DNA from: Candidatus Saccharimonadota bacterium
GTDB taxonomy: Bacteria; Patescibacteriota; Saccharimonadia; Saccharimonadales; UBA4665
Direction of reading: 5' to 3'
Assembly: GCA_963716945.1 (NCBI GenBank)
Contig: OY970322.1
Location: 360,001 to 392,000 of the forward strand
Length of the DNA stretch: 32,000 nucleotides
How positions within the stretch are numbered: position 1 is the first letter of the stretch; every line of letters begins with the position of its first letter. The translations under genes were made by a program, and so were the position numbers. The notes beneath the pieces are model-generated. The model was not told the DNA's origin and ran no database searches. It saw only the letters and a program-made list of their open reading frames with translations. This document shows, in pieces, positions 3,186 through 32,000 of this stretch.

Positions 3186-3249
3186 CCCGGGCCGTTCCGA
3201 CCCGGCCAGCCGCTATCATCAAGCTTACGCAACCTGTATAATAAGTACT

Positions 3250-6773: not shown

Positions 6774-7339
6774 TCATGCCGGCGGCGCGAAGCCGTAGCC
6801 AGGTATACCATGAATTCCAAAGCCAGTCCGACGGCGAAGCCGCCGACGAGCAGCAAGAAGAAAACGAAGTAGTTATAGGTGAAGCCGATATGCTTGGCGA
6901 GGTATAGGTAGCCGCTGGTGCCGAAAAAGGCGACCAAGCCGCCGCCCAACAGCCCTGACGGCCGGCTGACAGTGTTGCCGGCGGCCTCGCTGACGACCCT
7001 GACGGCCGGCTGGTGGATAACCCGGCTAAGGGTCCGTTGCGGAGCGCTCAGCTGGCGTCTTATGCTTTGCAGCTCGCGCCTTAGGGTTATTTGTTTCAGC
7101 TCGCGGTTGATTTGGCGCGGTGTGGCCGGGTCTGAGGCTTTCTCGGCGGCGGCCAGGGCTTCCAGCGGGTTGGGCCCGGTTTCGACCCGAACCGTTTCGG
7201 CTACCGTTTCACGGGCTTCGTGCAGGGCTAGGCGGGGGTCTTTTTCGCCGGGCCGGAGCTTCTCGGCCTGTTCGGGCGCCGGCAGGGCGGGCAAGGCTTC
7301 GACTCTTTGCTCAGGACTGGTTTTAAGCTTTTCCGACAT
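6770..7339 (-). CDS. Hypothetical C-terminally membrane-anchored protein
   Basis: 189-aa ORF. AAGGAG lies 8 nt upstream of the ATG, and the start is 16 nt downstream of the preceding minus-strand gene, suggesting an operon. Two C-terminal hydrophobic segments (LLGGGLVAFFGTSGYLYL, FVFFLLLVGGFAVGLALEFMVYL). Confidence 0.65.
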   Translation of the reverse strand: MSEKLKTSPEQRVEALPALPAPEQAEKLRPGEKDPRLALHEARETVAETVRVETGPNPLEALAAAEKASDPATPRQINRELKQITLRRELQSIRRQLSAPQRTLSRVIHQPAVRVVSEAAGNTVSRPSGLLGGGLVAFFGTSGYLYLAKHIGFTYNYFVFFLLLVGGFAVGLALEFMVYLATASRRRHD

Positions 7340-7355
7340 TCCAAATACTCCTTAG

Positions 7356-15172: not shown

Positions 15173-16671
<1,499 letters not shown>

Positions 16672-16911: not shown

Positions 16912-17313
16912 TTAAGCGACCGTCTCGCCGCCCAGACCTATGGCCGTGACGCCGGAATTTTCGAAGCCGGCCACGAAGAGCATTGAACTTTGGATCAAGC
17001 CGGTGATGCGATTAACCGTTAAATCCTGAGGCTGGGTAGCCATTCCGGCCCGCATTGCGTCCAGGGCCTCTTGTTGGACTTCGGGGTTAGTAGTCATGGG
17101 CAGCAAATCCCCGAAGGCTTCCATGACTTCCTGCATGTCTTCGTCCCTGATCCTGGTTCGGCGCCGGCCTATAAGGCCGGTATAATGGCCCTTTACTCCT
17201 TCGATGCGTTCGTTTAGCCCAGTCAGATGGGCGTTGATCTCTTCGAGCGACAAGCCCCTGAAGTATTCATACTTATCCTGAGTTCTTTGCCGGTCGGCTT
17301 CCGCGTCTCCCAT
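16912..17313 (-). CDS. Hypothetical protein
   Basis: 133-aa ORF, stop 20 nt from the bidirectional terminator. No motif recognised. Confidence 0.55.
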   Translation of the reverse strand: MGDAEADRQRTQDKYEYFRGLSLEEINAHLTGLNERIEGVKGHYTGLIGRRRTRIRDEDMQEVMEAFGDLLPMTTNPEVQQEALDAMRAGMATQPQDLTVNRITGLIQSSMLFVAGFENSGVTAIGLGGETVA

Positions 17314-17420
17314 AAGGCTCTCCTAAATAATCTGCTACTAAATTTACAATAACATTGGCCATAAGTCAAATAATCTAATCCGGTTGCTCGGTACTATGGG
17401 CATGGGTCATACTTGCGTTG

Positions 17421-18320
17421 ATGGATCTTTATCCGACGGTATTGGTGTTTGCCATGGGCGTCAGCTTCAAGGGCTACGTGCTCACCGAGAGGTATTTGCA
17501 GGAGAGGGGAGTGGCGCCGATAAGGACATTCGGGCTGCAGCGGTATGCCATTATTCCCGGCCTCATCTGGGGCGCGGTTTTTATCCGCGGCCATGACCTA
17601 AGCCGAATAATCCATACGCCTCATCTGTTAATTTACGTAATCGCTTTAGCGGCGGGCTGGAACATCCAGCAGTTTTTATCGAGCTACACAGTTAATACGG
17701 TCAGTTCGATGTCGGCCTTTTCGACGCTGCAAATGATACTGCTGTTACCGCTGTCACTGCTGGTCGGCACTTTCTTTAACCATGACGTGCCGAGCGTCTA
17801 TAGCTTCCTAGCCATCGTGGTTTTGCTTATAGCGTTCGTGGTGCATCCCGCGCAGCATGTCGATAATGCCCGGGAACGGTTCGCGATACCTTTAAGGCTT
17901 ATCATAGGACTGATTCTCGTGCAGACGATGGTGGATGCGGCTGACCAGGGCTTGTACCGGCAATTATTGAAAGAATTGGGGCCGGCGGTGGTTCTGGGAG
18001 TTTTCAGCGTGGTAACCCTGGGCCTGGCCATCTTATGGACTTCTTTCGTGCCGAAGCGGCAGCAGGAAACCGAGATCCTGCGCAAGCAGTGGCGCCGGTC
18101 GGCGGCTTTGCCGGGGTTCTGGTTCCTGGGCTCGATTCCGGGGGCCTATGCCATAGCAATCCTGCCGATTTACACCAGCCTGGCCATCAGTACCGTGACT
18201 TTTTTGATGGACGGCTGCTCCGACCTGATCCACCGCCGCATAGGCTTAAGCCCCCGGACGGTGGTTTTTCTGCTACTGGTCATAAGCGGGATAGGGCTGG
18301 CAGTTTACTCTATAAGGTAA
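17421..18320 (+). CDS. Polytopic integral membrane protein (possibly DMT/EamA-like transporter)
   Basis: About 299 aa with about 9-10 hydrophobic segments across the whole length. I prefer the ATG at 17421 over the adjacent TTG at 17418. The family call is tentative. Confidence 0.65.
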   Translation: MDLYPTVLVFAMGVSFKGYVLTERYLQERGVAPIRTFGLQRYAIIPGLIWGAVFIRGHDLSRIIHTPHLLIYVIALAAGWNIQQFLSSYTVNTVSSMSAFSTLQMILLLPLSLLVGTFFNHDVPSVYSFLAIVVLLIAFVVHPAQHVDNARERFAIPLRLIIGLILVQTMVDAADQGLYRQLLKELGPAVVLGVFSVVTLGLAILWTSFVPKRQQETEILRKQWRRSAALPGFWFLGSIPGAYAIAILPIYTSLAISTVTFLMDGCSDLIHRRIGLSPRTVVFLLLVISGIGLAVYSIR

Positions 18321-18326
18321 TCAAAT

Positions 18327-18403
18327 TGGTGGGCGATGAGGGACTCGAACCTCCGACCTCGTCATTATCAGTGACGCGCTCTAACCAGCTGAGCTAATCG
18401 CCC
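18327..18403 (-). tRNA. tRNA-Ile (anticodon GAU), CCA encoded
   Basis: Reverse complement gggcgattagctcagctggttagagcgcgtcactgataatgacgaggtcggaggttcgagtccctcatcgcccacca folds as a cloverleaf. Anticodon loop cuGAUaa, T-loop GGTTCGAGTCC. Confidence 0.95.
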
Positions 18404-18422: not shown

Positions 18423-18499
18423 TGGTGGAGCATATCGGATTCGAACCGATGACCCCCTGCTTGCAAAGCAGGTGCTCTAGCCAACTGAGCTAATGCCCC
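18423..18499 (-). tRNA. tRNA-Ala (anticodon UGC), CCA encoded
   Basis: Reverse complement ggggcattagctcagttggctagagcacctgctttgcaagcagggggtcatcggttcgaatccgatatgctccacca. Has the G3:U70 Ala identity pair, anticodon loop uuUGCaa, T-loop GGTTCGAATCC. Confidence 0.95.
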
Positions 18500-18701: not shown

Positions 18702-18731
18702 TTGACAGCTATGCATAAGCGGAGTTAAGAT
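18702..18731 (+). promoter_or_regulatory. Candidate promoter TTGACA-18-TAAGAT for the surface-protein/sortase operon
   Basis: TTGACA 18702-18707 and TAAGAT 18726-18731, about 55 nt upstream of the ATG at 18788. Confidence 0.5.
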
Positions 18732-18787
18732 GTAGTCAATCAATGTAAGGCGGAATACACAAAAACTAAACTTATAAAGGCTTGAAA

Positions 18788-20140
18788 ATGAAAATCAAAA
18801 AACTATTAAATGTTGGTTCGGCTTTGTTGCTGAGCCTGTCGGCACTGTTAACGGTATCGATACCGATGGCCCACGCCGCGACTTACACCTGTACCTGGAC
18901 CGATGCCAGCGGCACCGACAACAACTTCAGTACCGCCACCAACTGGTCCAACTGTAACAACGTTGCCCCCGGTACCGGCGGCGACACCTACAACCTGGAT
19001 TTTCCGGCGACCGCGCTCGGTTTTCAACCGGTAGACGACATCGCGTCGCTAACGGTTGGGACCATAAGCTTTGACGGGACGTTCAGCAACCCCAGTAACG
19101 GCGGTTACGACATAACGTCTTCCAGCTCCAGCAACGTTATCACCGTCGGCGGCGGCATTACCGACACCACCGACGGTCCGGGCAACACTTTCGGCACCGG
19201 CAACGAAATCGACGTTAACCTGACGCTGTCCGGCAGCCAGACCTTCAACGCCGGTGTCAACAGCGTGCTAATCCTCGGCGACGGCACCCTTAGCCTGAAT
19301 ACCGGCGCCAACAACCTGACCCTGGGCAACGTCCTGGTCATCAACCCGATCACCGGCAGCGGTTCGTTGATAGTCGACGACTCCAACTACCCGGCCGACG
19401 AAAGCGGCGTTGATTTGCTGGCTTCCAGCCCGAGCTTCACGGGCAGCGTAGCGGTTAACACCGGCGCCCTGTTCGTAGACGATACGGGCTCGCTGTCCAA
19501 TGCCTCCCAGGTAACGGTGGCCAGCGGGGCTTTGCTGAAGGGCGGTGACAACGCTACTGACGGTGGTGTCTCCAACCTGACAGTCCAGTCCGGCGGAACG
19601 GTTGCTCCCGGCCACAGCCCGGGCTGTATAACCGCCTCCAACGCTACGATTAACGGTACTTACCTGGCCCAGATCGGCGGTACCAACGCTTGCGCCGACT
19701 ATGACCAGCTGCAGGTATCGGGCACTGTCGACCTGACCGGCGGCACGCTCCAGACATCCGTAATAAATGGTTTCACGCCGACTGCCGGCCAGACCTTCGA
19801 AATCATTGATAACACCGGCGGCAGCGCCGTAACCGGTACCTTCGCCGGCCTGCCCGAAGGCGCTACCTTCACTTCCGGCGGCGCGACGTTCAAGATTTCA
19901 TATGTCGGCGGCGACGGCAATGACGTTACGCTGACGGTTGTCGGTGCCTCCGGTTCTTCCGGTTCGGGCTCCGGCAGCGGCGCTTCCGGCTCCGGCAGTT
20001 CATCGGCTGCCGCCCCCAAGACGCCTAACACCGGTCTTCGCGCCGTGCTGGCCAACCCGGCCGCTACCTTTGCCGCTTCATCGATTGCCGCCCTGACTCT
20101 CGTTCTAACGGCCCGCCGTTTGAAGCCCGGTGTCCGCTAG
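18788..20140 (+). CDS. Secreted beta-helix/autotransporter-passenger-like repeat protein with C-terminal TPNTG sortase sorting signal
   Basis: Signal peptide MKIKKLLNVGSALLLSLSALLTVSIPMAHA. G/T/N/S-rich beta-strand repeats. SGGTVAPGHSPGCITASNATINGTYLAQIGG...DYDQLQVSGTVDLTGGTLQ...FKISYVGGDGNDVTLTVV resembles the conserved end of autotransporter-associated beta-strand repeat proteins. Then a Ser/Gly linker, PKTPNTG, hydrophobic AASSIAALTLVLTA, and RRLK. ATG 18788 has better RBS spacing (aaagg) than TTG 18782. Confidence 0.8.
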   Translation: MKIKKLLNVGSALLLSLSALLTVSIPMAHAATYTCTWTDASGTDNNFSTATNWSNCNNVAPGTGGDTYNLDFPATALGFQPVDDIASLTVGTISFDGTFSNPSNGGYDITSSSSSNVITVGGGITDTTDGPGNTFGTGNEIDVNLTLSGSQTFNAGVNSVLILGDGTLSLNTGANNLTLGNVLVINPITGSGSLIVDDSNYPADESGVDLLASSPSFTGSVAVNTGALFVDDTGSLSNASQVTVASGALLKGGDNATDGGVSNLTVQSGGTVAPGHSPGCITASNATINGTYLAQIGGTNACADYDQLQVSGTVDLTGGTLQTSVINGFTPTAGQTFEIIDNTGGSAVTGTFAGLPEGATFTSGGATFKISYVGGDGNDVTLTVVGASGSSGSGSGSGASGSGSSSAAAPKTPNTGLRAVLANPAATFAASSIAALTLVLTARRLKPGVR

Positions 20141-20181
20141 TCTCTCGCCCGAGAAATTAAGTACCCAGAGGAGGAAGCCTC

Positions 20182-21261
20182 ATGTCAGAGCGCCAGCGCA
20201 TCGGTCTTGATAATCCGGTGTTTAACGGCCGGCTGCGCCAGCGCACTCCTCAGTTTACCCGGACGCCGCCCCGAGGCGCCGCCTCAGCCGGCCACACCCG
20301 CGGAGCAGGCTATCCGGCCCGCCCCCGGATAGCCGCCGCGCCGGTTCGAAGGCCGGCCCGCGTGCCGGTGGCCGCCGCCCGCCAGGCCAAGCCCGCGCTA
20401 AGGCCCGCCGCAGCGCCAACAGCACTGTCCCGGCCGCCGGTTTTTGCCGTACCGCAAACCCAGCCGGCCCGGCCGGTGCCGGCGCCGCGCCAACAGCACT
20501 CAGAGGTCCTCAAACGCCAGTTTGTCCGCGCGCCCGGTTCGGCTTCGGGTCTTGAACGAAACGGCGGTCCAAGGCGCTGGTGGCGCTATTCCAAGCCGCA
20601 GCAGATGATCATAGGCATGGCCTGCCTGGTATTCGCGCTTGGTCTCGGCGTCAGCTTGCAGGCGCTGCTGACCAACCACAACGCCTCGGCTCAGGTGGCG
20701 GCCTTGTCCAAACAGGTAGACAACCAATCCGGCGGCTCCAATGGCGGCAGTTCGAGTTCGCTGCCCAGCACCACTAAACCGAGCAGCCAGGCCATCAGCA
20801 ACTACGCGGTGGCGCCCGACTTACCGCGTTATCTCGATATTCCCAAACTTAATGTTCACGCCAGGGTGATGCAGGTCGGTGTCACGACTTCCGGCGCTCT
20901 CGGCACCCCCAATAATGTTTTCGATACGGCCTGGTACACCGGCAGCGCCAAACCGGGCCAGCCCGGCGCTACGCTTATCGACGGGCACGTTTCCAGCTGG
21001 ACAACTCATGGAGTTTTTTACAACATTAAGCACCTGGTTAAAGGTGATAATATCCGAATCGTGCGCGGCGACGGCACGATTATCAATTACCAGGTAGTCA
21101 AGACCCAGGTCTACAATGCCGACAACGTTGACATGCAGGCGGCCATAACGCCGGTGACTCCTGGAAAGTCCGGCCTCAACCTGATTACGTGCACCGGCCA
21201 GGTCAAAAAAGGGACCAGCGAGTTTAATGAGCGGGTAATCGTGTTTGCCCAGCAGGTCTAG
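20182..21261 (+). CDS. Sortase (class F-like transpeptidase) with long Arg/Pro/Ala-rich N-terminal extension
   Basis: 359 aa. GAGGAGGA RBS precedes the ATG. TM MIIGMACLVFALGLGVSLQALL. Catalytic-domain pattern LDIPKLNVHARVMQVG...PGATLIDGHVSS...VFYNIKHLVKGDNIRIV...LNLITCTG...ERVIVFA supplies the His, Cys (TC motif) and Arg of sortases. Confidence 0.85.
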   Translation: MSERQRIGLDNPVFNGRLRQRTPQFTRTPPRGAASAGHTRGAGYPARPRIAAAPVRRPARVPVAAARQAKPALRPAAAPTALSRPPVFAVPQTQPARPVPAPRQQHSEVLKRQFVRAPGSASGLERNGGPRRWWRYSKPQQMIIGMACLVFALGLGVSLQALLTNHNASAQVAALSKQVDNQSGGSNGGSSSSLPSTTKPSSQAISNYAVAPDLPRYLDIPKLNVHARVMQVGVTTSGALGTPNNVFDTAWYTGSAKPGQPGATLIDGHVSSWTTHGVFYNIKHLVKGDNIRIVRGDGTIINYQVVKTQVYNADNVDMQAAITPVTPGKSGLNLITCTGQVKKGTSEFNERVIVFAQQV

Positions 21262-21377
21262 CGGCGCCAAACGGCCACCAACTATCTCATCTGTGAAACC
21301 GGCAAATCCGGCCACTCGGCCTTAAAGAGTTTTTAATAATCTGTGCATAAGTCGACCCATAATTGTGTTCAATTTTA

Positions 21378-21406
21378 TTGCACTCCTATGCAACAGGGGC
21401 TACAAT
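21378..21406 (+). promoter_or_regulatory. Candidate promoter TTGCAC-17-TACAAT for the giant gene
   Basis: TTGCAC 21378-21383, 17 nt, TACAAT 21401-21406, 65 nt upstream of ATG 21472. Confidence 0.5.
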
Positions 21407-21471
21407 ATAATCACGTCTTGTAGCACCTGCTTTTAGGCAGGGCATAAAAACAACACGCAAAACAAATCAAA

Positions 21472-24400
21472 ATGGCAATCGAAAACAACGGCTTAGACGG
21501 GGTTAACCAGGGACTGGATTATGATTCCAGCCTGGAAACCGGCACCGGCTTGACGCCGCCGCCCCAAGATACGCCGCCGCAACCGCAAGGCCATGCCTTC
21601 CGGCGGTTCTTTAGCGTGCCTTACCACCGGGCTTTGCTGCTGACTAATGCCATCATCATCGCCATCATCCTGCTGATTGGCGGAACTTTCTTCCTGCTGT
21701 CGGCTCACTCCAAACAACCCTCGAACGATTCGACGGGCAACAAGCCGACCAGCTATGCCACCTCGTCTTTGCCCGTCCAAAACGTCCAGACCAACGAGCA
21801 GCTCCAGATCAGCGAAGCCAACCAACTGTCCATCAACGGCCAGGTGACTATCGGTGACACGCTGGTTTTGTCGCCGACCGCTACGCCGGCCAGCCCGGTC
21901 ACCGGCCAGATATACTACAACCAGTCCAACAACACGCCGTACTACTACAACGGCAGCCAGTTCGTCAGCTTGGCACCGAACGCCGTGCCGCAACAGTACG
22001 TTTCTTCTCTGGGCGGCAGTGCCGGCGGCATAGGGGTCGGCAGCAGTTTAACGCTGTCAGGCAACCAGCTGAACGTGTCACCGGGTTTGCTGCAGACAAT
22101 TTCGTCGCTGTCTTCGACTACCGGCAGCCTAAGCGGTCCGCGGGTTACCAGTCTGCAGGGTTTGACCGGCGCGGTCACCTTGTCGGCCGGTCCCGGCATC
22201 AGCCTAAACGGTACGACCATTGCCAGCAGCGGGGTGTTAAGCCTGGTTTCGGGTTCGGCCAGCATTGCCGTTAGCAACAACGGCAACGGCAATTACACCG
22301 TCAGCGAGACGCCAAACGCCGGCGTAACCTTGCTGAACGGTTTGGGCGGTGTCCTGGTCCTGGCCAACTCGGCCGGTTCCGGCAGTACCATAACCATCGA
22401 CAACGCCGCAGCCGACGGGTCCACCAAAGGTATCGCTACTTTCAATTCGACTAACTTTACGGCCGCCGGCGGCGTGGTTAACACTATCCAGGACGTTGAC
22501 ATAGCGGCTACCCCGACGTTCGCCGGACTGACCGTCCAGGGGGCCGGCGGGCTGACAATCGGCCTTCCGGGTACGAATAACGGCCAGCTTAAACTGGCCA
22601 ATTCGACCGGCAGCCAAGAGGTCGTCTTGCAAGGCCTGAACCCCAGCGGCATCGGCGGCAACGCGACTATCGACTTCCCGAGCATTGCCGGCGGCACCAC
22701 CGATACGGTTTGTCTCTTCAGCCTGGGCAACTGTTCGGCGGCCGGCAACGGCGTGACCAGCCCTGGCGGCACCACCAACCAGGTCGCTAAGTTCACCGGC
22801 TCGAGGGTCGTCGGCGACTCCGGCATAACCGATGACGGCACCAACGTGACGATTGGCGGCGGAGAAGGACTGGTCGCCGGTACGATAACGGCTTCGACTT
22901 TGCAGAGTGCCGGTACGCTTAGCATTACCCCGGGCGCCAACCTAACCCTCGGTGCCTCCAACCACCAGTTCCTGCTGCAGGGCAACGGCGGTTCGACGCT
23001 GAGCGTCAGTTCCAGCGGCAATACGACGACGGTCGGGTTTGTCTTGCCGACCGCTAACCGGACAATTAACTTCCCGGATGAGTCAGGTACCGTCTGTTTG
23101 CAGAACTCGCCGAACTGCGGTTTCGCGGCCGGTGGCAGCGGCGTGACCTCCCTGAACGGCCTGACCGGCGTCCTGAGCATTGCCGATGCCACCGGTGCCG
23201 GTTCGACGGTCACCATCCAGGACGCTTCGACCAGCCAACTGGGCCTGGCCCAGTTTAACGCTTCCGACTTCACTGTCAGTTCCGGCGTAGTCGATACTAT
23301 ACAGGGGATTACGACCGGATCGAGCGTTCAATTCGGCAGCTTGACACTGGGCACTGGCGGCAATTTGAACGTATCCCCGACCGGCACGCTGTTCGTCGAC
23401 ACGATCAAGACCACGCTGACCGGCTCCGGCAATATCTCGATTTACTCCGATGGCGCCGGCAGCAATATAAACTTTTATACCGATGGCGGCGCTAACAGCT
23501 TCATGTTCCCGACCACCGGCGGTACCGGCCAAACTATCTGTACCAGCGGCATAACGTGTGCGTCGGGTGGCGGCCAGGCGGTCATTCTGGAGCCGGGCAC
23601 CGGCAGCGGTACGGTCCAGACGGCCAGCTCCAACCGCACGGCCATCTGGGTCAACAAGGCTTCCGGCAGCGGCAACCTGATCGAGCTGCAGGATGGCGGC
23701 AATGACGCTTTCGTGATCGATAACGCCGGCAACACCACGATTACGACCGGATCCGTAACGAATAACTTCTCGGTCGGCGGTACGCTTGGCGTTAACACGA
23801 TTACGCCGACCGGTTCGCTGACCATCGGCGCCACCAACCAGGCCTTCACGCTGCAGGGTAACAGCGGTTCGGTTATCACGGCTACCGGCGGCGGCGCGCT
23901 GACTTCGGTCGGCTTCGCTATCGGCAGCGGTCCGACGGCGCCGAATGGCAACGTCACCTACCAGTTCGAGAATGACAACAACGTTTCGCCCGGTACTTAC
24001 ACGGTTTGTACCACGGCCGGCAACTGCGCCGGTGTCGGCGGCAGTATTACCGGGACAGGTACGGCCGGCAAGCTGGCGGTCTTTACCGCGCCGGGTGCCA
24101 TCGGCAGCTCGATCATAAGCGATAACGGCAGCGGTACGGTGACGGTCGGCGGCAATCTGGCCGTCGGTACGAGCGGCGCCAGCCAGTTATCGCTGGGCGT
24201 GGCCTCCGGCGCTGACGGCACGCTGGTGTTCAATAACTCCACCAACAATAACCTGGTGACAATCCAGGAGGCGGCTGCGCCGGCGGGCAACGTCACTATC
24301 AAACTGCCGAACCAGAGCGGTACGGTGGCCGTGTCGGCCACCGGGCCCCTGTCGCTTGACGCGACCACCGGGCAGCTGTCGTGCGCCACCTGTTTGACGA

Positions 24401-27400
24401 GTGGCGGCGGCGGGGCCGGCGGCGTCACCTCCCTGAACGGCCTGACCGGCGTCCTGAGCATTGCCGATGCCACCGGTGCCGGTTCGACGGTCACCATCCA
24501 GGACGCTTCGACCAGCCAACTGGGCCTGGCCCAGTTTAACGCTTCCGACTTCACTGTCAGTTCCGGCGTAGTCGATACTATACAGGGGATTACGACGACT
24601 TCCAGCCCGACGTTTAATAATCTGACGCTGCAGGGTGCCACCGGTTTGACTATCGGTAGCGCGACCAACCTGGGCCAGCTGATGTTCAAAGACGGCACGG
24701 CCGACGGCTTCACGTCCAAGTTCAGTCCGGCTACCCTTACCGGCAACCAAACGATTACCGTACCGAACGCCTCCGGCACGCTGGCGGTGTCGGCTTCCGG
24801 CAACCTAAGCCTGTCGGCGCTGGGGGCTTTGACGATTACCAACAGCCCGACCTTCAGTGGCAACTTGACTGTCCAGGGCTCCGGCGGCATAACCGTCGGT
24901 ACCAACTCACAGCCCGGCAACTTGGTGCTTGAGGACGGCAACGGCGCCAGCAACCACACGGCCACGCTGCAGCCTTTCGCGACGCTCGGACAGGACACTG
25001 TCTACACCTTGCCGGACCCGGGCACGGGCACGGTTAACATCTGTCTTAGCACCGGTAACTGTGCCGGCGCCGGGGCAGGGGTCACGGCCAGCAGCCCGAC
25101 CCAGAATTACGTACCTAAGTTCGGGGTCGGCAATGTTATCGCCAACTCCGAGCTATACGATAACGGCTTCGTCGGGGTAAACACCGTTACTAATAAGGGC
25201 CAGCTGTCGGTAGTCAGCGGCGGTGCGGGCGAGAGCAGCCTCTACGTCCAGCAGAGCGCGGCCAGCGCCACCGTTCCCGTCGCTATTATCCAGGGCGGTG
25301 CCACGCCCGGCGCCGGCGCCGACTTATTGGATTTGAAGACCAGCAGCTCGGTAGTCGCCAAGTTCGACAATGCCGGCAACCTGAGCAACACCGGTACTAT
25401 TAGCGCCGGCACCGGTTTCCAGGTCAATGGCGCGGCGCCTTCGGGCGACTACCTGAGAGGCAACGGCACCAGTTATGTCGCCAGCGCGCTGCTGGCCGGC
25501 GACTTGAGCGGCACATTATTCAGTTTGCAAGCTAGCGGCGGCGCCAGCCAGGCGGTTGTTAGCGGCGGCACGGTTTCGATTCTGGCCGGCAGCAGCGGCA
25601 ATTTGACGACAACCGCCAGTGCCACCGATACGGTGACTGTCGATATAGTTAATAATCCGACTTTCACAGGTGATGTTACGCTCAGCGGGTCGGGTACCGG
25701 GTTAAGTGTCACTAACTCAGCTACGATCGGTAACGGCCTGACCGTTTCGGCCGGCGGCGCCGCCATAACCGGCAACTCGACAATTAACGGTACGCTTGGT
25801 TCGCTGACCGGCCTGAGTTCGTCCGGCACGATTACGTTTAGCGGCCTGGGCACCGGTGTTCTACAGGCCACGTCGGGCGTGCTTAGTGCTTACGGCGGGG
25901 GCCTGGTCACCGGTATAGTCGATGGCGTGGGCACCAGCCACAGCGGCGCCATAACGATTAGCAACTCTACCTATACCGGCCCCAGCACGATTACGATTAA
26001 CAATGCCAAAGCCGACGGCTCGACCAAGGGCATAGCGACCTTTAACGCGACCAACTTCCAGGATAACGGCTCCGGCGTCATCAATACCATCCAGGATATA
26101 TCGAGCAGTTCGTCGCCGACCTTCAGCAACCTTAATGTTCAGGGCTCCACCGGTTTGACCGTCGGCGTGGCCGGCAGCACGGTCGGCAACCTCATCCTGG
26201 CCAATGCTACCAGCGGCCGTGAAGTTATCCTGCAGGGCGCCAACCCGACCCTCGGTACCGGCGGCAACGCCACGATTACCATACCGTCCATAGCCGGCGG
26301 CGGCAGCGATACGGTCTGTTTGCTGACACTGGGCAACTGTACGGGGGGAACGGTTAGCGTTTCCGGCAGCGCTACCGCCAACTACGTAACCAAATTCACC
26401 GGTACGGGTAACGCCATTTCTACTTCGCAGATTTTTGACAACGGTTCGTTTGTCGGTATTAACACAACAACCAACAGCGGCCAGCTATCGGTAGTCAGCG
26501 GCAGTACCGGCGAAAGCGGACTGTACGTCCAGGAAAGCGCGGCCAGCGCCACCGTACCGGTAGCCGTTATCCAGGGCGGTGCCATGCCCGGCGCCGGCGC
26601 CGACTTATTGGATTTGAAGACCAGCAGCGCCCTGGTCGCCAAGTTCGACAATGGCGGCAACCTGCAGTTCCAGCAGGCCAGCACGGTGAACATAGCTTCG
26701 GCCGCCACCGGCACCCAGCTGACCGTTAAAGGCGGGTCCGCCACAGCCAGTACCAACGCCGGCGGCAATCTATTGCTGGAGGGCGGTGCCGGTGCCAGTA
26801 CCGGTGCCAGCGGCTCGGTTATCGTCCAGTCTAACGGTAATAACTCGACTACCGCTTTTGAAGTCCAAAACGCCGGCAGCCAAAACCTGCTCCAGGTCGA
26901 TACCGTTAATAACGGCATCACCTTGAACGGCGGCAACAGCGGCGCTACCAACAGCTGGTCTACCAACGCCAACGCCTTGCCGACCGCCTTGGCTTGCTCG
27001 ACTTCGGTCACCGCCAACGGCTACGTCTATCTCATCGGCGGCAACACCGCCGGTTGTGGCAGCGTCAGTGCCGTTTCCACCGTCTACTACGCCAAACTCA
27101 ACGCCGACGGCAGCACCGGTACCTGGACAACTAACGCCAACGCTTTGCCGGCCGCCCGCAACTGTGCCACTTCGGTCACCGCCAACGGCTACGTTTACGT
27201 TATGGGCGGTGCCAGCGGTTCCAGCAGCTGTAACGGCACCGTCCAGTCGACCGTCTACTACGCCAAACTTAACAGTGACGGCAGCACCGGTGCCTGGACC
27301 ACCGGTTCCAACCCGCTGCCGACGGCTCTAGCCTGTGCCACTTCGGTCACCGCCAACGGCTATGTCTACGTCATCGGCGGCGGCAGCGGCGCCAGTGGTT

Positions 27401-30400
27401 GTAACGGCACGGCCGTTTCTACCGTCTACTACGCCAAACTCAACGCCGACGGCAGCACCGGTGCCTGGACCACCAGCGCCAACCCGTTAACGGCCGCCCG
27501 CGCCTGTGCCACTTCGGTCACCGCCAACGGCTACGTTTACGTTATGGGCGGTGCCAGCGGCGCCTGCGGCGGCAGCGGCACCGTCCAGTCGACCGTCTAC
27601 TACGCCCAGCTTAACAGCGACGGCAGTACCAGCGGCTGGACGACCAACGCCAACGCCTTGCCGGCCGCCCGCGCCTGCGGCAGTTCGGTTGCGGCCAACG
27701 GCTATGTCTACTTCCTGGGCGGCAGCAGCGGCACCGGCGGAGCCTGTAACCTCGGTACCGCCCAGGCCACCGTCTACTACGCCCAACTAAGCAACAACGG
27801 CAGTACTGGTACCTGGACGACCAACGCCAACGCCTTGCCGACTGCCGAAGCCTGCACCAGTTCCATCACGGTCAACGGCTACATTTATGTCATCGGCGGC
27901 AGCACTGGCAGCAACGTGTGTGGCAGTGGTACTGCCGCTTCCACCGTTTACTACGCGTCGTTGGCCCGGATTACGGTCAATGCTTCGCTTGACCTGGTCG
28001 GTCTGCAGGGCGGTAACCTGTCTAACCCCGGCGATCAAAGCACGGGCTCGGCCGGCGGTTCATTGACGGCCGGCAACGGCCTGTTCGTTGGCAGCTTGCA
28101 GGTACAGGGGCAAACCAGCCTGGCCCAGGGCTTAGCTGTCAACGGCAATGTGACGGCTAACGGCTCGGCTCTCTTCCAGGATAATACCAACTCGACGACT
28201 GCCTTCCAGATCCAGGGGTCGGCCGGGTCGGCCGCCGCCGTCCTAACGGCTGACACGGTTAACAGCCGCATCGGCGTGGATGTTACTTACGCGGCCATGG
28301 GCGCACCCACCCAAAACAACACCAGTACTGCGACTACCGGCGGCACCTTGGCCGCCACGACTTATTACTATAAGGTTACCGCCCTAGATGCCGCCGGCGG
28401 CGAGAGCCTGCCTTCGAACGAGAAAAGCCAAGTTACCACCGGTTCCACAAGTACGGTTACCCTTACCTGGACCTCGGTAACCGGCGCCGTCGCTTATAAG
28501 ATTTACCGTGGTACCACGGCTCTGGGAGGTTCCGGCTCCGAGGTCTACCTGACCACGACTACCGGGACGGCCAGTGCAGGCAATCTTACGTATGTTGACA
28601 CGGGTTCGGTTACTGCCGGCGCTGCCACGCCGCCAACTTCGAACACGGCTTATGTCGCCACTAACACTTCCAGTAGCAACCTGCAATTGAGCGTCGGCGG
28701 CATCGGTACCCCGACCGGCCAGCTATACGTAGCCGGCCTGCTGCCGGCCTCTACTATCGGTAGCGTGAGCACCGGCACTGCCGTACAGGGGGTATACGTC
28801 CAAGGCCGCTACGCCTACACTGTTAGCAGCGGCACCAACACCTTGCAAGTCATTGACGTATCCAGTCCCAATACTCCGGTCAGCGTCGGCAGTGCCGCTG
28901 TCGGCACGTCTCCCGGTGGCGTCTATGTCCAAGGCCGCTACGCTTACGTTACCGGTACGGGTACCAACCTCTTCTTGGTCTACGATGTTTCCAATCCGGC
29001 CAGTCCGGCCAAAGTCGCCAGCCTTTCCACGGGCGCCAGTTCGACGCCGGGTCCGCTCTACGTCTCCGGCCGCTACGCTTACGTGGCCGACACCGGTACC
29101 GATAATATTCAAATATTCGACATTTCCAACCCTCTGACTCCGGTCAGTGTTGCTACCATCTCTACAGGTGCCTCGACCGTTCCAAAATCAATTTACGTCC
29201 AAGGCCGCTACGCTTACGTAGTCGCCACCACCTCGACTTTTGAAGTCTTTGATGTTTCCAACCCGGCCAGCCCAGTTATGGTCAGCGATGTTTCGACCGG
29301 CAGCCAAAGTCCCGCCGCCGTCTACGTCCAAGGCCGCTACGCTTACGTATCCGGTTCTGCCAGCAGCGGCAACTTCCAGGTCTTTGATGTTTCCAACCCG
29401 GCCAGCCCGGTCATAGTAGGTAGTACCTTAATCGCCAGTAACTCCTTTACCGGAGCGGGGATTTACGTCCAAGGCCGCTACGCTTACGTAACCAGCGGTT
29501 ACCCCGGCGTCAGCACGCCGGCTTTCTCCGCTGTCGACATCTCCGACCCGGTTGCGCCGCACGTAATCGGCACGACTATGACCACCAGTAGCACCTTTGC
29601 CCTAAAGACCGTCTATGTCCAAGGCCGTTACGCTTACGTAGGCGATAACGACGGGGGCACGCTGCAGATATTCGACTTGGGCGGCACCTACACGCAGGAG
29701 CTGCAGGCCGGCGGCATCGAGGCTAGCACCCTGCAGGTTGACTCTAACGCCTCGGTCGCCGGCGACGAGTCCATACAAGGCGGCTTGAGTCTGGGGGCTA
29801 ACCTCCAGGTAGCCGGCAACGCCGGTATCAACGGCAACCTTAACCTGACTGCCAGCACTATCAGTACGCCTACCGCGCCGACGCTTACTTCCAGCGGCAG
29901 CGGCGGTACTCTGGCCGCCGCGACATATTACTATCAGCTGGCCGCCGTTGGCGCCGACGGTACTACCGCCGCCGTGGCTTCCAGTCCGGCCAGCGTTACG
30001 GATAGCGGCTCCACCAGTAAGAACACCTTGACCTGGTCGGCGGTGACGGGCGCCACGGCTTACATAGTTTACGAGTCGACCAACGGCACGACCTGGTTTT
30101 ATAACGAAGTCACTTCCGGCACGACCTCGATAGTTGATAACGGCACTAACTTTACCTGGACAAACTCGGGCACGCCGCCGAGTACCTCGACGACCGGCGG
30201 TAACCTGACGGTTGGCGGTACGGTTCTGTTCCAAACCAAAGCCAACTCTACTACCGCTTTCCAAGTCCAAAACGCCGCCGGCAACAACTTCATCCAGGTA
30301 GATACCAACGGTGCCAACCTTTATCTTGGTAACACCGGCATCGCCAGCACGATCCAGGTCGGCAACACCACCGGGGCCGTTGCCCAGACTATCGATATCG

Positions 30401-32000
30401 GCAACAACGCCACCGCCAGCTCTTCGACAACCTTAGTCATCGGTTCGACTGTCGGTACCAGTCCGGTGACTGTCCAGTCCGGTACTTCCGGCACCACTTT
30501 CACGCCGGCCGGTGGCAGCTCCAACACCGGCGTGCTGGTAAAACCGGTGTCTAACACCACTGCCGCCTTCCAAGTCCAAAACACCAGTAACGCCGCCGTC
30601 CTGAACGTCGACGCGACTAACGGCACCACCACCCTGCAGGTGGCCACCGGCAACGACACGGCCACCCTTGGCGCCAACCTGGCCCCGACCAACTTCAGCA
30701 CCGGCTGGACCGGCACCAACTGGACGCTCGCCAGCACCACTGCCGCCCACAACGCCCTGTCCGGCCACACCCAGGCCTTGTCGCCGACCACGCCCTTGGC
30801 CACCACCTCCGGCCAGGTCTACCAGATCAGCTACACCATCACCAACCCGACTACCGCCGGCACCAGCCTGACGGTGGCCCTGGGCAGCACTACCATAGCC
30901 TTCTACAACTTCGACGCTAACACGGCCGGCACCTACAGCTTCACCGACACCGTCATGGCGACCGCCCCCAGCAATAATGCCAACCTGACCTTCACGCCTG
31001 ATGCCTCCGGCCTGTTCACCGGCACCATATCGGCCGTTTCGGTCCAACTGGTGACCCAAAGCACCCACCCGGCTCTGGTAGTCGACAACGCTTCCGGCAA
31101 CCCCAACGTCCAGCTGCGGGCCAGTTCCGACACCCACAGCCTGCTCTTAGGCTTTGACGCCGGCGAATCCAACAGCAGCGGCACCAACAACACCGCCGTC
31201 GGTACCTATAGCTTGCAGGACAACGGCAGCGGTTCCTCCAACGTCGCCGTCGGTACCTTCGCTCTCCAGAATAACGCTTCCGGCAACGACAACAGCGCCT
31301 TGGGCTACGAGGCTCTCCAGTTCAACACTTCCGGCGGCCAGAACACGGCTATCGGCTACAATACTCTCAGCAGCAACACCACCGGCAGTTACAACGTGGC
31401 TGTCGGCAGCAACGGCCTGGCGTCCAACACCTTAGGCTACTCCAACACCGCCGTCGGCATAGCCACCTTGCAGAACAACACCACCGGCTCCGGCAACATA
31501 GCCCTGGGCAACAACACCTTGGAGAACAACACCACCGGCAACGGCAACATCGGCATCGGCGGCCTGGGCGATAACACTACCGGCAGTAACAACGTCGCTA
31601 TCGGCGGCCTGGGCAGCAACAATGGTTACTCCAACGTCGCTGTTGGTACCTTCAGCCTATACAACAGCACCGGCGTCAGCAACGACACAGCCATCGGTTA
31701 CCAGGCTTTGCAAAACGACGTCGGCGGCAGCTACAACGTCGGCCTGGGCTACGGCGCCAACGTGCTCAACGGCAGCCTGAACCTTAGCGGCGCCGACGCC
31801 ATCGGGGCCGGCACTCAAGTCGGTGCCAGCAATACCACTATCCTGGGCTACGGCCTTGCCAACGGCGCCAACCAGGCCGTCGGCATCGGCACGTCCTTCG
31901 CCCCCAACGAACTGACGGTCAGCCCGCAGACTTACGGCACCAACGGCACCGTAGGCAGCGGCACGACCATCACCCAGGGCAGCGGCTCCGGTACGGTTAC
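21472..32000 (+). CDS. Giant membrane-anchored mosaic surface protein (more than 3,509 codons, 3' end beyond window): fibre-like modules, Kelch-like propeller, FN3-like, LVIVD-like propeller, Asn/Gly/Thr repeat
   Basis: I translated frame 1 (aligned to the line starts) by hand from ATG 21472 to 32000 and found no stop codon. N-terminus MAIENNGLDGVNQGLDYDSS...FRRFFSVPYHRALLLTNAIIIAIILLIGGTFFLLSAH gives a TM anchor. No frame-1 plus-strand ORF is listed in the track for this span, as expected if open-ended ORFs were omitted (infC at the other edge is also missing). Confidence 0.88.
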   Translation, partial: MAIENNGLDGVNQGLDYDSSLETGTGLTPPPQDTPPQPQGHAFRRFFSVPYHRALLLTNAIIIAIILLIGGTFFLLSAHSKQPSNDSTGNKPTSYATSSLPVQNVQTNEQLQISEANQLSINGQVTIGDTLVLSPTATPASPVTGQIYYNQSNNTPYYYNGSQFVSLAPNAVPQQYVSSLGGSAGGIGVGSSLTLSGNQLNVSPGLLQTISSLSSTTGSLSGPRVTSLQGLTGAVTLSAGPGISLNGTTIASSGVLSLVSGSASIAVSNNGNGNYTVSETPNAGVTLLNGLGGVLVLANSAGSGSTITIDNAAADGSTKGIATFNSTNFTAAGGVVNTIQDVDIAATPTFAGLTVQGAGGLTIGLPGTNNGQLKLANSTGSQEVVLQGLNPSGIGGNATIDFPSIAGGTTDTVCLFSLGNCSAAGNGVTSPGGTTNQVAKFTGSRVVGDSGITDDGTNVTIGGGEGLVAGTITASTLQSAGTLSITPGANLTLGASNHQFLLQGNGGSTLSVSSSGNTTTVGFVLPTANRTINFPDESGTVCLQNSPNCGFAAGGSGVTSLNGLTGVLSIADATGAGSTVTIQDASTSQLGLAQFNASDFTVSSGVVDTIQGITTGSSVQFGSLTLGTGGNLNVSPTGTLFVDTIKTTLTGSGNISIYSDGAGSNINFYTDGGANSFMFPTTGGTGQTICTSGITCASGGGQAVILEPGTGSGTVQTASSNRTAIWVNKASGSGNLIELQDGGNDAFVIDNAGNTTITTGSVTNNFSVGGTLGVNTITPTGSLTIGATNQAFTLQGNSGSVITATGGGALTSVGFAIGSGPTAPNGNVTYQFENDNNVSPGTYTVCTTAGNCAGVGGSITGTGTAGKLAVFTAPGAIGSSIISDNGSGTVTVGGNLAVGTSGASQLSLGVASGADGTLVFNNSTNNNLVTIQEAAAPAGNVTIKLPNQSGTVAVSATGPLSLDATTGQLSCATCLTSGGGGAGGVTSLNGLTGVLSIADATGAGSTVTIQDASTSQLGLAQFNASDFTVSSGVVDTIQGITTTSSPTFNNLTLQGATGLTIGSATNLGQLMFKDGTADGFTSKFSPATLTGNQTITVPNASGTLAVSASGNLSLSALGALTITNSPTFSGNLTVQGSGGITVGTNSQPGNLVLEDGNGASNHTATLQPFATLGQDTVYTLPDPGTGTVNICLSTGNCAGAGAGVTASSPTQNYVPKFGVGNVIANSELYDNGFVGVNTVTNKGQLSVVSGGAGESSLYVQQSAASATVPVAIIQGGATPGAGADLLDLKTSSSVVAKFDNAGNLSNTGTISAGTGFQVNGAAPSGDYLRGNGTSYVASALLAGDLSGTLFSLQASGGASQAVVSGGTVSILAGSSGNLTTTASATDTVTVDIVNNPTFTGDVTLSGSGTGLSVTNSATIGNGLTVSAGGAAITGNSTINGTLGSLTGLSSSGTITFSGLGTGVLQATSGVLSAYGGGLVTGIVDGVGTSHSGAITISNSTYTGPSTITINNAKADGSTKGIATFNATNFQDNGSGVINTIQDISSSSSPTFSNLNVQGSTGLTVGVAGSTVGNLILANATSGREVILQGANPTLGTGGNATITIPSIAGGGSDTVCLLTLGNCTGGTVSVSGSATANYVTKFTGTGNAISTSQIFDNGSFVGINTTTNSGQLSVVSGSTGESGLYVQESAASATVPVAVIQGGAMPGAGADLLDLKTSSALVAKFDNGGNLQFQQASTVNIASAATGTQLTVKGGSATASTNAGGNLLLEGGAGASTGASGSVIVQSNGNNSTTAFEVQNAGSQNLLQVDTVNNGITLNGGNSGATNSWSTNANALPTALACSTSVTANGYVYLIGGNTAGCGSVSAVSTVYYAKLNADGSTGTWTTNANALPAARNCATSVTANGYVYVMGGASGSSSCNGTVQSTVYYAKLNSDGSTGAWTTGSNPLPTALACATSVTANGYVYVIGGGSGASGCNGTAVSTVYYAKLNADGSTGAWTTSANPLTAARACATSVTANGYVYVMGGASGACGGSGTVQSTVYYAQLNSDGSTSGWTTNANALPAARACGSSVAANGYVYFLGGSSGTGGACNLGTAQATVYYAQLSNNGSTGTWTTNANALPTAEACTSSITVNGYIYVIGGSTGSNVCGSGTAASTVYYASLARITVNASLDLVGLQGGNLSNPGDQSTGSAGGSLTAGNGLFVGSLQVQGQTSLAQGLAVNGNVTANGSALFQDNTNSTTAFQIQGSAGSAAAVLTADTVNSRIGVDVTYAAMGAPTQNNTSTATTGGTLAATTYYYKVTALDAAGGESLPSNEKSQVTTGSTSTVTLTWTSVTGAVAYKIYRGTTALGGSGSEVYLTTTTGTASAGNLTYVDTGSVTAGAATPPTSNTAYVATNTSSSNLQLSVGGIGTPTGQLYVAGLLPASTIGSVSTGTAVQGVYVQGRYAYTVSSGTNTLQVIDVSSPNTPVSVGSAAVGTSPGGVYVQGRYAYVTGTGTNLFLVYDVSNPASPAKVASLSTGASSTPGPLYVSGRYAYVADTGTDNIQIFDISNPLTPVSVATISTGASTVPKSIYVQGRYAYVVATTSTFEVFDVSNPASPVMVSDVSTGSQSPAAVYVQGRYAYVSGSASSGNFQVFDVSNPASPVIVGSTLIASNSFTGAGIYVQGRYAYVTSGYPGVSTPAFSAVDISDPVAPHVIGTTMTTSSTFALKTVYVQGRYAYVGDNDGGTLQIFDLGGTYTQELQAGGIEASTLQVDSNASVAGDESIQGGLSLGANLQVAGNAGINGNLNLTASTISTPTAPTLTSSGSGGTLAAATYYYQLAAVGADGTTAAVASSPASVTDSGSTSKNTLTWSAVTGATAYIVYESTNGTTWFYNEVTSGTTSIVDNGTNFTWTNSGTPPSTSTTGGNLTVGGTVLFQTKANSTTAFQVQNAAGNNFIQVDTNGANLYLGNTGIASTIQVGNTTGAVAQTIDIGNNATASSSTTLVIGSTVGTSPVTVQSGTSGTTFTPAGGSSNTGVLVKPVSNTTAAFQVQNTSNAAVLNVDATNGTTTLQVATGNDTATLGANLAPTNFSTGWTGTNWTLASTTAAHNALSGHTQALSPTTPLATTSGQVYQISYTITNPTTAGTSLTVALGSTTIAFYNFDANTAGTYSFTDTVMATAPSNNANLTFTPDASGLFTGTISAVSVQLVTQSTHPALVVDNASGNPNVQLRASSDTHSLLLGFDAGESNSSGTNNTAVGTYSLQDNGSGSSNVAVGTFALQNNASGNDNSALGYEALQFNTSGGQNTAIGYNTLSSNTTGSYNVAVGSNGLASNTLGYSNTAVGIATLQNNTTGSGNIALGNNTLENNTTGNGNIGIGGLGDNTTGSNNVAIGGLGSNNGYSNVAVGTFSLYNSTGVSNDTAIGYQALQNDVGGSYNVGLGYGANVLNGSLNLSGADAIGAGTQVGASNTTILGYGLANGANQAVGIGTSFAPNELTVSPQTYGTNGTVGSGTTITQGSGSGTV
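23146..23315 (+). repeat. Copy 1 of a perfect 170-bp in-frame intragenic duplication
   Basis: acctccctgaacggcctgaccggc...atacaggggattacgac is identical base for base to 24427-24596. It encodes TSLNGLTGVLSIADATGAGSTVTIQDASTSQLGLAQFNASDFTVSSGVVDTIQGITT. Confidence 0.95.
24427..24596 (+). repeat. Copy 2 of the perfect 170-bp duplication (offset 1281 nt = 427 codons)
   Basis: Compared base by base with 23146-23315. Identity breaks immediately outside both ends (g/c at -2, c/g at +1). Confidence 0.95.
26950..27965 (+). repeat. Six tandem Kelch-like blades (168-177 nt each) inside the giant CDS
   Basis: The unit W(T/S)T..N.LP.A(R/L).C..SVTANGYVYV(I/M)GG....C.....STVYYAKLN.DGSTG starts at 27001, 27169, 27340, 27511, 27682 and 27859. 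Confidence 0.8.
28780..29690 (+). repeat. Seven tandem LVIVD-like repeats (129-150 nt each) inside the giant CDS
   Basis: The core (V/I)YVQGRYAYV...(F/I)(Q/E)V(F/I)DVSNPASPV occurs at 28792, 28921, 29056, 29191, 29320, 29461 and 29611. The DNA core tacgtccaaggccgctacgcttacgta is identical in copies 4-6. Confidence 0.8.
31189..31764 (+). repeat. About 12 tandem 17-residue (51-nt) Asn/Gly/Thr-rich repeats, N(T/V)A(V/I)G..(A/S)L..N(T/A)(T/S)G..
   Basis: The N-x-A-x-G motif starts at 31189, 31240, 31291, 31342, 31393, 31444, 31495 and 31546 (exact 51-nt period), then 31591, 31633, 31684 and 31735. Confidence 0.8.

Follow-up and report, generated by a model that had tools for sequence, protein, structure and literature searches.

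A sortase gene that adjoins the gene of its substrate is a familiar arrangement, and in the exosortase/PEP-CTERM systems, as for the class GN 'marine' sortase and its one target, the sorting enzyme is likewise encoded beside a protein that carries the cognate tag, a pairing that is conserved in many genomes. The class E housekeeping sortases (Thermobifida fusca SrtE and Actinomyces oris SrtA) recognise LAXTG. To our knowledge, the attachment of Candidate Phyla Radiation (CPR) episymbionts to their hosts is largely unexplained beyond type IV pili and Pam pili. The housekeeping SrtF of Cutibacterium (Propionibacterium) acnes belongs to class F and is reported to have LPXTG specificity (PMC8225981), and sortases are common in CPR genomes (Meheust 2019, PMC6744442). 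The cultured Saccharibacterium Southlakia epibionticum ML1 has two of them, SEML1_0327, which is essential, and SEML1_0711, whose disruption gives a growth advantage in transposon sequencing (Tn-seq; Wang et al. 2023, PMC10633639, Table S1). Here we analyse a 32,000-nucleotide (nt) stretch of Candidatus Saccharimonadota DNA (contig OY970322.1 of 1,099,440 bp, positions 360,001–392,000; G+C about 60%), the whole of which is called the window below, in which gene A, the gene of a predicted secreted beta-helix protein (protein A), is directly followed by a sortase gene, and we find it likely that these two genes form an operon for covalent surface display. A first-pass annotation, made from the letters of this DNA, had joined them with a giant open reading frame (ORF) downstream into one module and had seen no fit to any described pilus or adhesin system, whereas a sortase beside its substrate is an arrangement of the familiar kind. 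All three genes are present on the plus strand and co-oriented, as that annotation had said, and the CPR and Saccharibacterial origin that it proposed agrees with the named relatives of the proteins studied, which are Saccharimonadales, Saccharibacteria or Patescibacteria, and with the GyrB sequence, which shares a 90%-identity cluster with a Candidatus Saccharimonadales metagenome-assembled genome.

The features of the gene A-sortase cassette, in window coordinates, are:
18702–18731, plus strand: promoter-like TTGACA-18-TAAGAT upstream of gene A, matching 10/12 consensus positions, putative in function
18788–20140, plus strand: gene A, ATG start, predicted secreted beta-helix protein of 450 amino acids (aa)
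20015–20137, plus strand: predicted sorting signal of gene A, consisting of PKTPNTG (aa 410–416, 20015–20035), a hydrophobic helix (20036–20113) and the basic tail RRLKPGVR (20114–20137)
20168–20175, plus strand: Shine-Dalgarno-like GAGGAGGA, 6 nt before the sortase ATG
20182–21261, plus strand: sortase, 359 aa (PF04203)
20182–20604, plus strand: sortase extension (aa 1–141), Arg/Pro/Ala-rich, net charge +23
20200–20241, plus strand: short motif IGLDNPVFNGRLRQ in the cytoplasmic extension of the sortase, recurring in relatives
within 20503–20523, plus strand: VLKRQF, the second motif of the sortase extension

The reading frame of gene A is also open from a TTG at 18782. Because the 89%-identical relatives L007 and L008 (loci are cited by L numbers) keep the ATG at 18788 and lack this TTG, and because gene callers give 450 aa, we take the ATG to be the real start, which corrects the 452 aa first given for the product. 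Protein A is laid out as a signal peptide (aa 1–30), a beta-solenoid (aa ~32–386) and a Gly/Ser linker (aa 386–409), followed by the sorting signal. At the N-terminus the basic residues of MKIKK are followed by a hydrophobic core (aa 5–31) and an AHA-A site, and these are conserved in homologues. Its C-terminus shows the complete tripartite architecture of the LPXTG type, that is, a motif, a hydrophobic segment (26 residues, Ala-rich and mostly hydrophobic) and a positively charged tail. In an alignment of 16 full-length sequences (protein A and 15 homologues, 44–91% identity) P410, P413, T415 and G416 are invariant, giving the pattern P-x-x-P-x-T-G; the signal peptide region, Cys35, Cys280 and Cys302 are also invariant (Cys56 is present in at least 90%), as are the motif APGxSPGC, the cap Y-x-GG-x-GND-V-x-L and the ARRLKP-type tail after the hydrophobic stretch. 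The secreted repeat protein with a sortase sorting signal of the first-pass annotation is thus recovered in all its parts: a signal sequence, an all-beta body and the PKTPNTG signal.

Scans against Pfam and NCBIfam assigned no family to protein A or to any of the 15 homologues. AlphaFold2, run on the 16-sequence alignment, modelled aa 32–386 as an all-beta solenoid (predicted local distance difference test score (pLDDT) 81, predicted template-modelling score (pTM) 0.75); in the model the Gly/Ser linker after it is disordered, and aa 416–444 at the C-terminus form a helix. The best matches of this model in a Foldseek search of the PDB are the autotransporter passengers Hap, pertactin, Ag43, EspC, IcsA and IgA1 protease, at the weak scores given below. 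The model suggests that the body of protein A is likely of the beta-helix class, and we treat its specific similarity to autotransporter passengers as a resemblance.

Just as first annotated, the second gene encodes a sortase and starts exactly 41 nt after the stop codon of gene A, behind the strong ribosome-binding site (RBS) GAGGAGGA. The Pfam Sortase model PF04203 covers aa 218–358 of its product with 76.4 bits (gathering cutoff 26.6). The catalytic residues are His269 (in LIDGH), Cys337 (in LITC) and Arg351 (in NERV), and they are invariant in a 19-sequence alignment and in 12 locus-derived sortase ORFs. Homologues that are 63–83% identical to the catalytic domain carry the NCBI label 'class F sortase'. 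With the AlphaFold2 model of the sortase (pLDDT 84.5) Foldseek matched 111 PDB chains at E ≤ 1e-3, and each of the 50 matches listed is a sortase; the lowest root-mean-square deviation (rmsd) among these listed matches is that of the class E SrtE of Thermobifida fusca (9iok_A; 2.9 Å over 161 columns, 24% identity), and the class C sortases, which come first by E-value, have an rmsd of 7–14 Å, compared with 2.9–4.4 Å for class E. When the PDB was searched by sequence only, the full-length sortase gave no match, and for the isolated catalytic domain the best E-value was 0.006.

The catalytic domain (aa ~218–358) is preceded by a transmembrane (TM) segment (aa 139–165) and a cytoplasmic extension (aa 1–138), and gene callers are split on whether this extension is translated. 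We favour the 359-aa form because its frame is open in every relative and because two short motifs recur in it, which also supports the start codon chosen in the first-pass annotation. Both motifs (IGLDNPxFxGRLR and VLKRQF) are found in the sortase ORFs of L001, L004, L007, L010, L015 and L018, among which the extension shows no conservation outside them and cannot be aligned. A cytoplasmic extension with such conserved motifs is unusual for sortases.

The pairing of the two genes is widely conserved. A sortase lies directly downstream of the A homologue in 17 of the 19 CPR loci that bear an A-like gene (about 13 of these A-centred loci are non-redundant); in the paired loci the A proteins are 31–89% and the sortases 30–91% identical to those of the window, and no sortase was found at any of the diderm loci with an A-like gene. 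A sortase-centred scan of metagenomes gave 80 loci, 70 of them evaluable by their upstream sequence, and in 59 of these 70 the gene directly upstream is co-oriented with the sortase and has xPxTG, a hydrophobic segment and a basic tail at its end; a hidden Markov model (HMM) built from the gene A alignment matches 48 of the 59. The motif in the sortase-centred loci is PNTG in 27 and PDTG in 26, with mostly Ala or Thr before the Pro, and the adjacent substrates carry [A/T/S/V]-P-[N/D]-T-G. These comparisons strongly suggest that gene A and the sortase gene are a conserved unit across Saccharimonadia. That they form an operon is argued for by the 41-nt gap, the strong RBS, the fact that a terminator scan predicted none between them, and the genes of relatives, which abut or overlap. 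The promoter-like TTGACA-18-TAAGAT upstream of gene A is kept in L007 and L008, where a nearby stretch of 56 nt is missing.

A mechanism for such an operon can be proposed as follows. Protein A would be exported via Sec, and its signal peptide would be removed after AHA. Outside the membrane it would fold into a right-handed beta-helix of the autotransporter-passenger type, which two disulfides, C35–C56 and C280–C302, would probably stabilise, while its C-terminal hydrophobic helix and RRLKPGVR tail would hold it in the membrane. The sortase is predicted to be anchored in the membrane so that its N-terminus is cytoplasmic and its catalytic domain lies outside the cell, where Cys337, with His269 and Arg351, would cleave the signal K-T-P-N-T|G of protein A; the peptide AAPKTPNTGLRA is the one we name for this predicted KTPNTG cleavage. 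The sortase would then move the Thr carboxyl onto an amine of a peptidoglycan precursor, leaving the helix attached to the wall through a Gly/Ser spacer of 24 residues. Bridge-forming enzymes of the FemA/FemB type are annotated as core, enriched in Patescibacteria and essential in S. epibionticum (Wang 2023, PMC10633639, Table S1), and a cross-bridge nucleophile is therefore plausible. The domain identities, the conservation of the motifs and the conserved gene pairing are observed, and from them we infer the cleavage, the wall attachment and the co-transcription of the two genes.

Several observations weigh against the reading of gene A and the sortase gene as a display operon, or against parts of it. 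The Foldseek matches of protein A are weak, with a best E-value of 0.018, none at E ≤ 1e-3 and template-modelling scores of at most 0.36 (the Hap match has a probability of 0.99). The anchor HMMs for Gram_pos_anchor (PF00746) and LPXTG (TIGR01167) do not match gene A. The first motif position is Thr and not the canonical Leu, and the family has Thr, Ala or Ser there; the residue before Pro in 44 sorting-signal proteins, found in about 1.1 Mb of flanking DNA, is A in 20, T in 16, V in three, S in two and L, G and M in one each. The C-terminal stretch of protein A is weakly hydrophobic, below the Kyte-Doolittle threshold of 1.6. The best NCBIfam model for the sortase, class F, scores 114.6 bits, which is below its curated cutoff of 166 (the other classes score 34.9 bits for E, 32.9 for GN and 25.2 for C, the class C cutoff being 160). 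The two exceptions among the 19 A-centred loci, L012 and L016, have an A-like gene and no sortase, L016 with two tandem A-like paralogues, and ten sortase loci are without an upstream substrate. Finally, if SEML1_0711 is the orthologue of the window sortase, S. epibionticum can grow epibiotically without the cassette.

Beyond the question of whether protein A is a substrate there is that of whether it is the only one. The sortase might process only the protein encoded directly upstream, with a second, housekeeping sortase handling the other surface proteins, and this alternative, which we consider unlikely, survives best of those weighed here. The pairing is very consistent, and changes in motif and enzyme go together: the two most divergent sortases (L045 and L067; 30–35% identity) follow substrates that end in PNTA or PDTA and not PxTG. 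Two cassettes share one contig (L127 and L133), and in each of them the sortase gene follows a substrate gene of its own. Conservation of the ARRLKP-type tail is unusually strong. Sorting-signal proteins are rare in the flanking DNA, and no locus but the window and L016 has two or more of the 44. A second sortase does exist in related genomes (L090; S. epibionticum with SEML1_0327 and SEML1_0711), which bears also on the first-pass remark that there is only one sortase; this is correct for the 32-kb window and says nothing about the rest of the genome, and since so short a window cannot show it and related genomes carry two, an argument from a single sortase fails. Against a dedicated pair, sortases of this family persist with no substrate gene beside them at about seven separate points of the sortase tree, one of which is L095, sister to the window clade, and A-like paralogues and a DUF11 protein with a like signal lie away from any sortase. 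The catalytic domain is moreover better conserved (73–81% identity) than protein A (40–63%) in L001, L002, L004, L010 and L014, and this fits a broader role of the sortase.

The DUF11 protein is encoded in the window itself, with two neighbouring genes:
7356–8777, minus strand: second predicted sortase substrate, a 473-aa DUF11/DUF7927 protein (Pfam) with ALPNTG, a hydrophobic segment and a basic tail
6770–7339, minus strand: 189-aa protein with a C-terminal TM segment, adjoining the DUF11 protein
3684–6773, plus strand: 1,029-aa ATPase with a hydrophobic N-terminus and weak AAA_22 and HerA/DUF87 matches below the Pfam cutoffs

The DUF11 protein (7356–8777) passes the sorting-signal filter with the motif LPNTG and is not adjacent to a sortase. 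The sortase probably also serves the few other xPxTG proteins of the genome, of which the DUF11 protein is an example, and protein A would then be its principal, co-transcribed substrate. The genes at 3684–8777 may be another envelope-associated gene group.

The distribution of the beta-helix itself is much wider than that of the cassette. In a scan of one genome per GTDB species, full-length relatives of gene A with at least 40% identity were found only in Saccharibacteria. Planctomycetota, Acidobacteriota, Verrucomicrobiota and Proteobacteria also commonly have the helix, and most of all its C-terminal half, and a few relatives in these phyla span almost all of gene A at 31–38% identity. In these four phyla the cap is followed by PEP-CTERM-like tags, VPTLS-type tags, an 'IPTTGGGG...RRY' tag or domains of giant proteins. 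At four loci of the Acidobacteria (L048, L060, L066 and L075), a diderm phylum, the A-like ORFs end in '...NIPTTGGGGAIAF..LLVRRY', which looks like a sortase signal. From these sequence comparisons gene A appears to be a widespread passenger-type module that bears a sortase signal in the Saccharimonadia lineage. By analogy with beta-helix adhesins, a role of protein A in host-cell binding is plausible. A more far-reaching account of the display operon can be built on this. The cassette would be a Saccharimonadia-wide, essentially dedicated means of displaying a host-contact beta-helix adhesin with its own signal grammar ([A/T/S]-P-[N/D]-T-G and an ARRLKP-type tail); the cytoplasmic tail of the sortase (LDNPxFxGRLR, VLKRQF) would couple display to an intracellular partner or the cell pole; and the passenger module that diderms have in their autotransporter and PEP-CTERM proteins would have been re-plugged into the monoderm-type anchoring machine of an episymbiont lineage. 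Taken as a whole, we regard this account as doubtful.

The third gene of the first-pass module and the features that belong to it are:
21378–21406, plus strand: promoter-like TTGCAC (21378–21383), 17-nt spacer and TACAAT (21401–21406), upstream of the giant ORF
21472–32000, plus strand: giant ORF, ATG at 21472, more than 3,509 codons, open to the end of the window
aa ~1830–2150 of the giant protein: Kelch-type repeats (propeller)
aa ~2440–2760 of the giant protein: LVIVD repeats

The giant protein has a single TM segment (aa 49–81) with about 48 cytoplasmic residues before it, and its ORF contains long Gly/Thr/Ser-rich repeat modules, including repeats of 1,281 nt. Repeats of the type N-T-A-x-G at aa ~3200–3509 (~31000–32000) share 40–50% identity with 'tail fiber domain-containing' proteins of Bacteroidota, in which the intramolecular chaperone domain Peptidase_S74 is usually present, and by this similarity the giant protein may end, beyond the window, in a similar trimeric fibre module. 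A search with its last 509 residues was dominated by repetitive Bacteroidota tail-fibre proteins, and the parent protein was not found among the matches.

In the first-pass annotation the beta-helix protein was grouped with the sortase and the giant protein in what looked like one functional module and could be an attachment apparatus, and a test of their co-occurrence was proposed. We consider such an apparatus improbable. The three genes are adjacent and co-oriented, and the order gene A-sortase-giant gene is kept in the closest relatives (L007–L009 and L091) as well as in L002/L003 and L098, in which aa 1–279 of the giant protein are 45–46% identical. When the co-occurrence of the genes was checked in related loci, however, the pair was kept (17/19 and 59/70, as given above) and the giant gene was not: of the 33 sortase-centred loci whose sequence extends 5 kb or more beyond the sortase, one (L098) has an ORF of at least 1,000 aa that starts within 3 kb after the sortase on the same strand. 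A giant gene after the cassette was seen only in the window clade (L007–L009/L091), in L002/L003, where an extra gene of 274 aa precedes it, in L098 and in L012, and in other lineages the sortase is followed by the RNase Y gene or by a beta-lactamase-like gene of opposite orientation. There is no sorting signal in the visible part of the giant protein, whose lone LPxTG-like sequence, SPVTG at aa 141, has no anchor context, and the complete relatives of the giant protein have a '...TYxYxYxxxQ'-type end without a sorting signal.

The giant ORF also has its own conserved promoter-like element. The TTGCAC-17-TACAAT promoter proposed for it at first pass is present, and the block is kept in L007 despite deletion of the spacer immediately upstream of it; its −35 box is weak, TTGCAC matching the consensus at 3/6 positions and hence not being called by the consensus scan. 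Because the spacer between the sortase and the giant ORF contains no convincing terminator (folding z-score 0.40), separate transcription of the giant gene is argued for solely by this conserved promoter-like box. An octamer, TGCATAAG, occurs just twice in the 32 kb, at 18712–18719 and 21344–21351, both on the plus strand and thus one in each of the promoter regions of gene A and the giant gene, which would favour a link between the three genes. This octamer was noticed post hoc, at least two matches are obtained in 10 of 100 shuffles, and it is conserved in L007 and L008 and absent from L002 and L098; as its conservation is limited to these 89%-identical relatives, we have not used it as evidence, and its two copies may mark a local regulatory site or have arisen by chance. 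Nothing ties the giant protein to the sortase. We take it, on its sequence features, to be a separately transcribed surface fibre that is anchored in the membrane by its N-terminus, a lineage-specific neighbour outside the cassette, and so retain the pair and not the three genes as the unit.

It is very improbable that the sortase links A subunits into a polymerised fibre like a class C pilus sortase, a reading in whose favour are the first rank by E-value of class C sortases in the Foldseek search and the single adjacent substrate gene, since protein A has a predicted beta-helix and no pilin motif (YPKN-type), E-box, CnaB or Ig-type domain, there is no second pilin gene, the class C model scores 25.2 bits against 114.6 for class F, and class E structures fit at much lower rmsd; the first-pass statement that pilin-type motifs are lacking agrees with this. 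That the adjacency has no functional meaning, or that gene A is not a sortase substrate, is hardly credible in spite of the non-canonical motif (T, A or S for L) and the missing anchor-domain match, as the motif never varies in its P, T and G and the pairing is kept over sortase identities of 30–91% and in most of about 90 loci.

On the other side of gene A, the window contains:
15173–16671, plus strand: 16S rRNA gene, with no 23S gene after it
16912–17313, minus strand: ORF
17418–18320, plus strand: ORF
18327–18403, minus strand: tRNA-Ile(GAT)
18423–18499, minus strand: tRNA-Ala(TGC)

The tRNA pair noted in the first-pass annotation as flanking the locus is there, on the opposite strand and divergent from the three plus-strand genes. 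It is not a general feature of such loci, as it was seen next to gene A only in L002/L003 (where it is inverted relative to gene A), L007, L008 and L012, and is thus confined to one subclade. The pair lies 1.7 kb downstream of the 16S gene, on the opposite strand and in the order Ala then Ile, and the two ORFs listed separate it from that gene. The usual place of tRNA-Ala and tRNA-Ile genes is the 16S-23S spacer, and the 16S gene with its displaced tRNA pair looks like a dissolved rRNA operon. A mobile island at the tRNA flank was considered and rejected, there being no integrase and no shift in composition, and the tRNAs belonging to the dissolved rRNA operon. In many Saccharimonadia the cassette lies directly upstream of the RNase Y gene (rny), namely in L089, L015, L018, L081 and about 15 loci among L091–L170, and in L089 the genes just upstream of gene A are those of TsaE and a TsaD-domain (TsaB-type) protein. 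The RNase Y neighbourhood is probably the ancestral location of the cassette; in the window clade the cassette instead adjoins tRNA-Ala/Ile and the giant gene.

A search of the full-text literature on sortases in combination with Saccharibacteria or Patescibacteria found no description of the gene A-sortase cassette, and no sortase-anchored beta-helix of the autotransporter type in CPR, [A/T/S]PxTG grammar or conserved cytoplasmic tail was found there. The cassette is a concrete and widely conserved candidate for attachment, consisting of one surface protein of the beta-helix type and its predicted wall-anchoring enzyme, and its sorting motif, catalytic residues and predicted operon structure are now defined for peptide cleavage tests and genetics. 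Dropping the giant gene from the hypothesis saves experimental effort. That the same passenger-type beta-helix appears to bear different C-terminal sorting tags according to the type of envelope helps in annotating surface proteins of microbial dark matter. The value of these results lies in features of lineage and variant, of use to specialists in CPR and the cell envelope, and not in a new principle.

Compared with described systems, protein A is like the passengers of type Va autotransporters (Hap, pertactin, Ag43 and IcsA) in its predicted right-handed beta-helix and its top structural matches, and the region 'APGxSPGC ... Y-x-GG-x-GND-V-x-L' near its C-terminus is common to many proteins of Planctomycetota, Acidobacteriota, Verrucomicrobiota and Proteobacteria. 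Unlike autotransporters it has a sortase signal instead of a beta-barrel translocator and ends 68 residues after the helix cap. The autotransporter-associated repeat PATR (PF12951, TIGR02601) does not match protein A or its 15 homologues, and PF12951 does match the longer paralogues, which have about 550 aa. The cassette resembles the class GN and exosortase pairs in that the sorting enzyme adjoins the tagged protein and the pairing is conserved, and differs from the class GN pair in the low score of its sortase (32.9 bits), in the persistence of window-type sortases without a neighbouring target and in the existence of other tagged proteins. The Pam pili of CPR bacteria use donor-strand exchange and no sortase (preprint 10.64898/2026.03.03.709456), and we rejected that system as a match for the cassette because the two are unrelated.

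Within Saccharibacteria, SEML1_0711 of S. epibionticum lies beside RNase Y and TsaB (the neighbours listed are enolase and RNase Y), and the Tn-seq table has no annotated surface-protein or sortase-substrate gene beside it (PMC10633639). This neighbourhood is like that of the cassette in L089, L015, L018, L081 and the roughly 15 metagenome loci mentioned above. SEML1_0327, for its part, has about 266 residues before its catalytic domain and in this resembles the window sortase with its long extension.

Among the sortase classes, class E comes closest to the window sortase by rmsd and identity among the matches listed (9iok_A and 5utt_A), and the window substrate also has a small residue and not Leu near the start of its motif; the class E model, however, gives 34.9 bits only, and the small residue precedes the Pro here (xPxTG), whereas in LAXTG it replaces the Pro. 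The class F sortases of Actinobacteria (NF033748) provide the best class model and share with the window sortase a single N-terminal membrane anchor and the His-Cys-Arg triad. From these the window sortase differs in a score below the cutoff, an adjacent substrate with [A/T/S]-P-x-T-G, a cytoplasmic extension of 138 aa and its CPR host.

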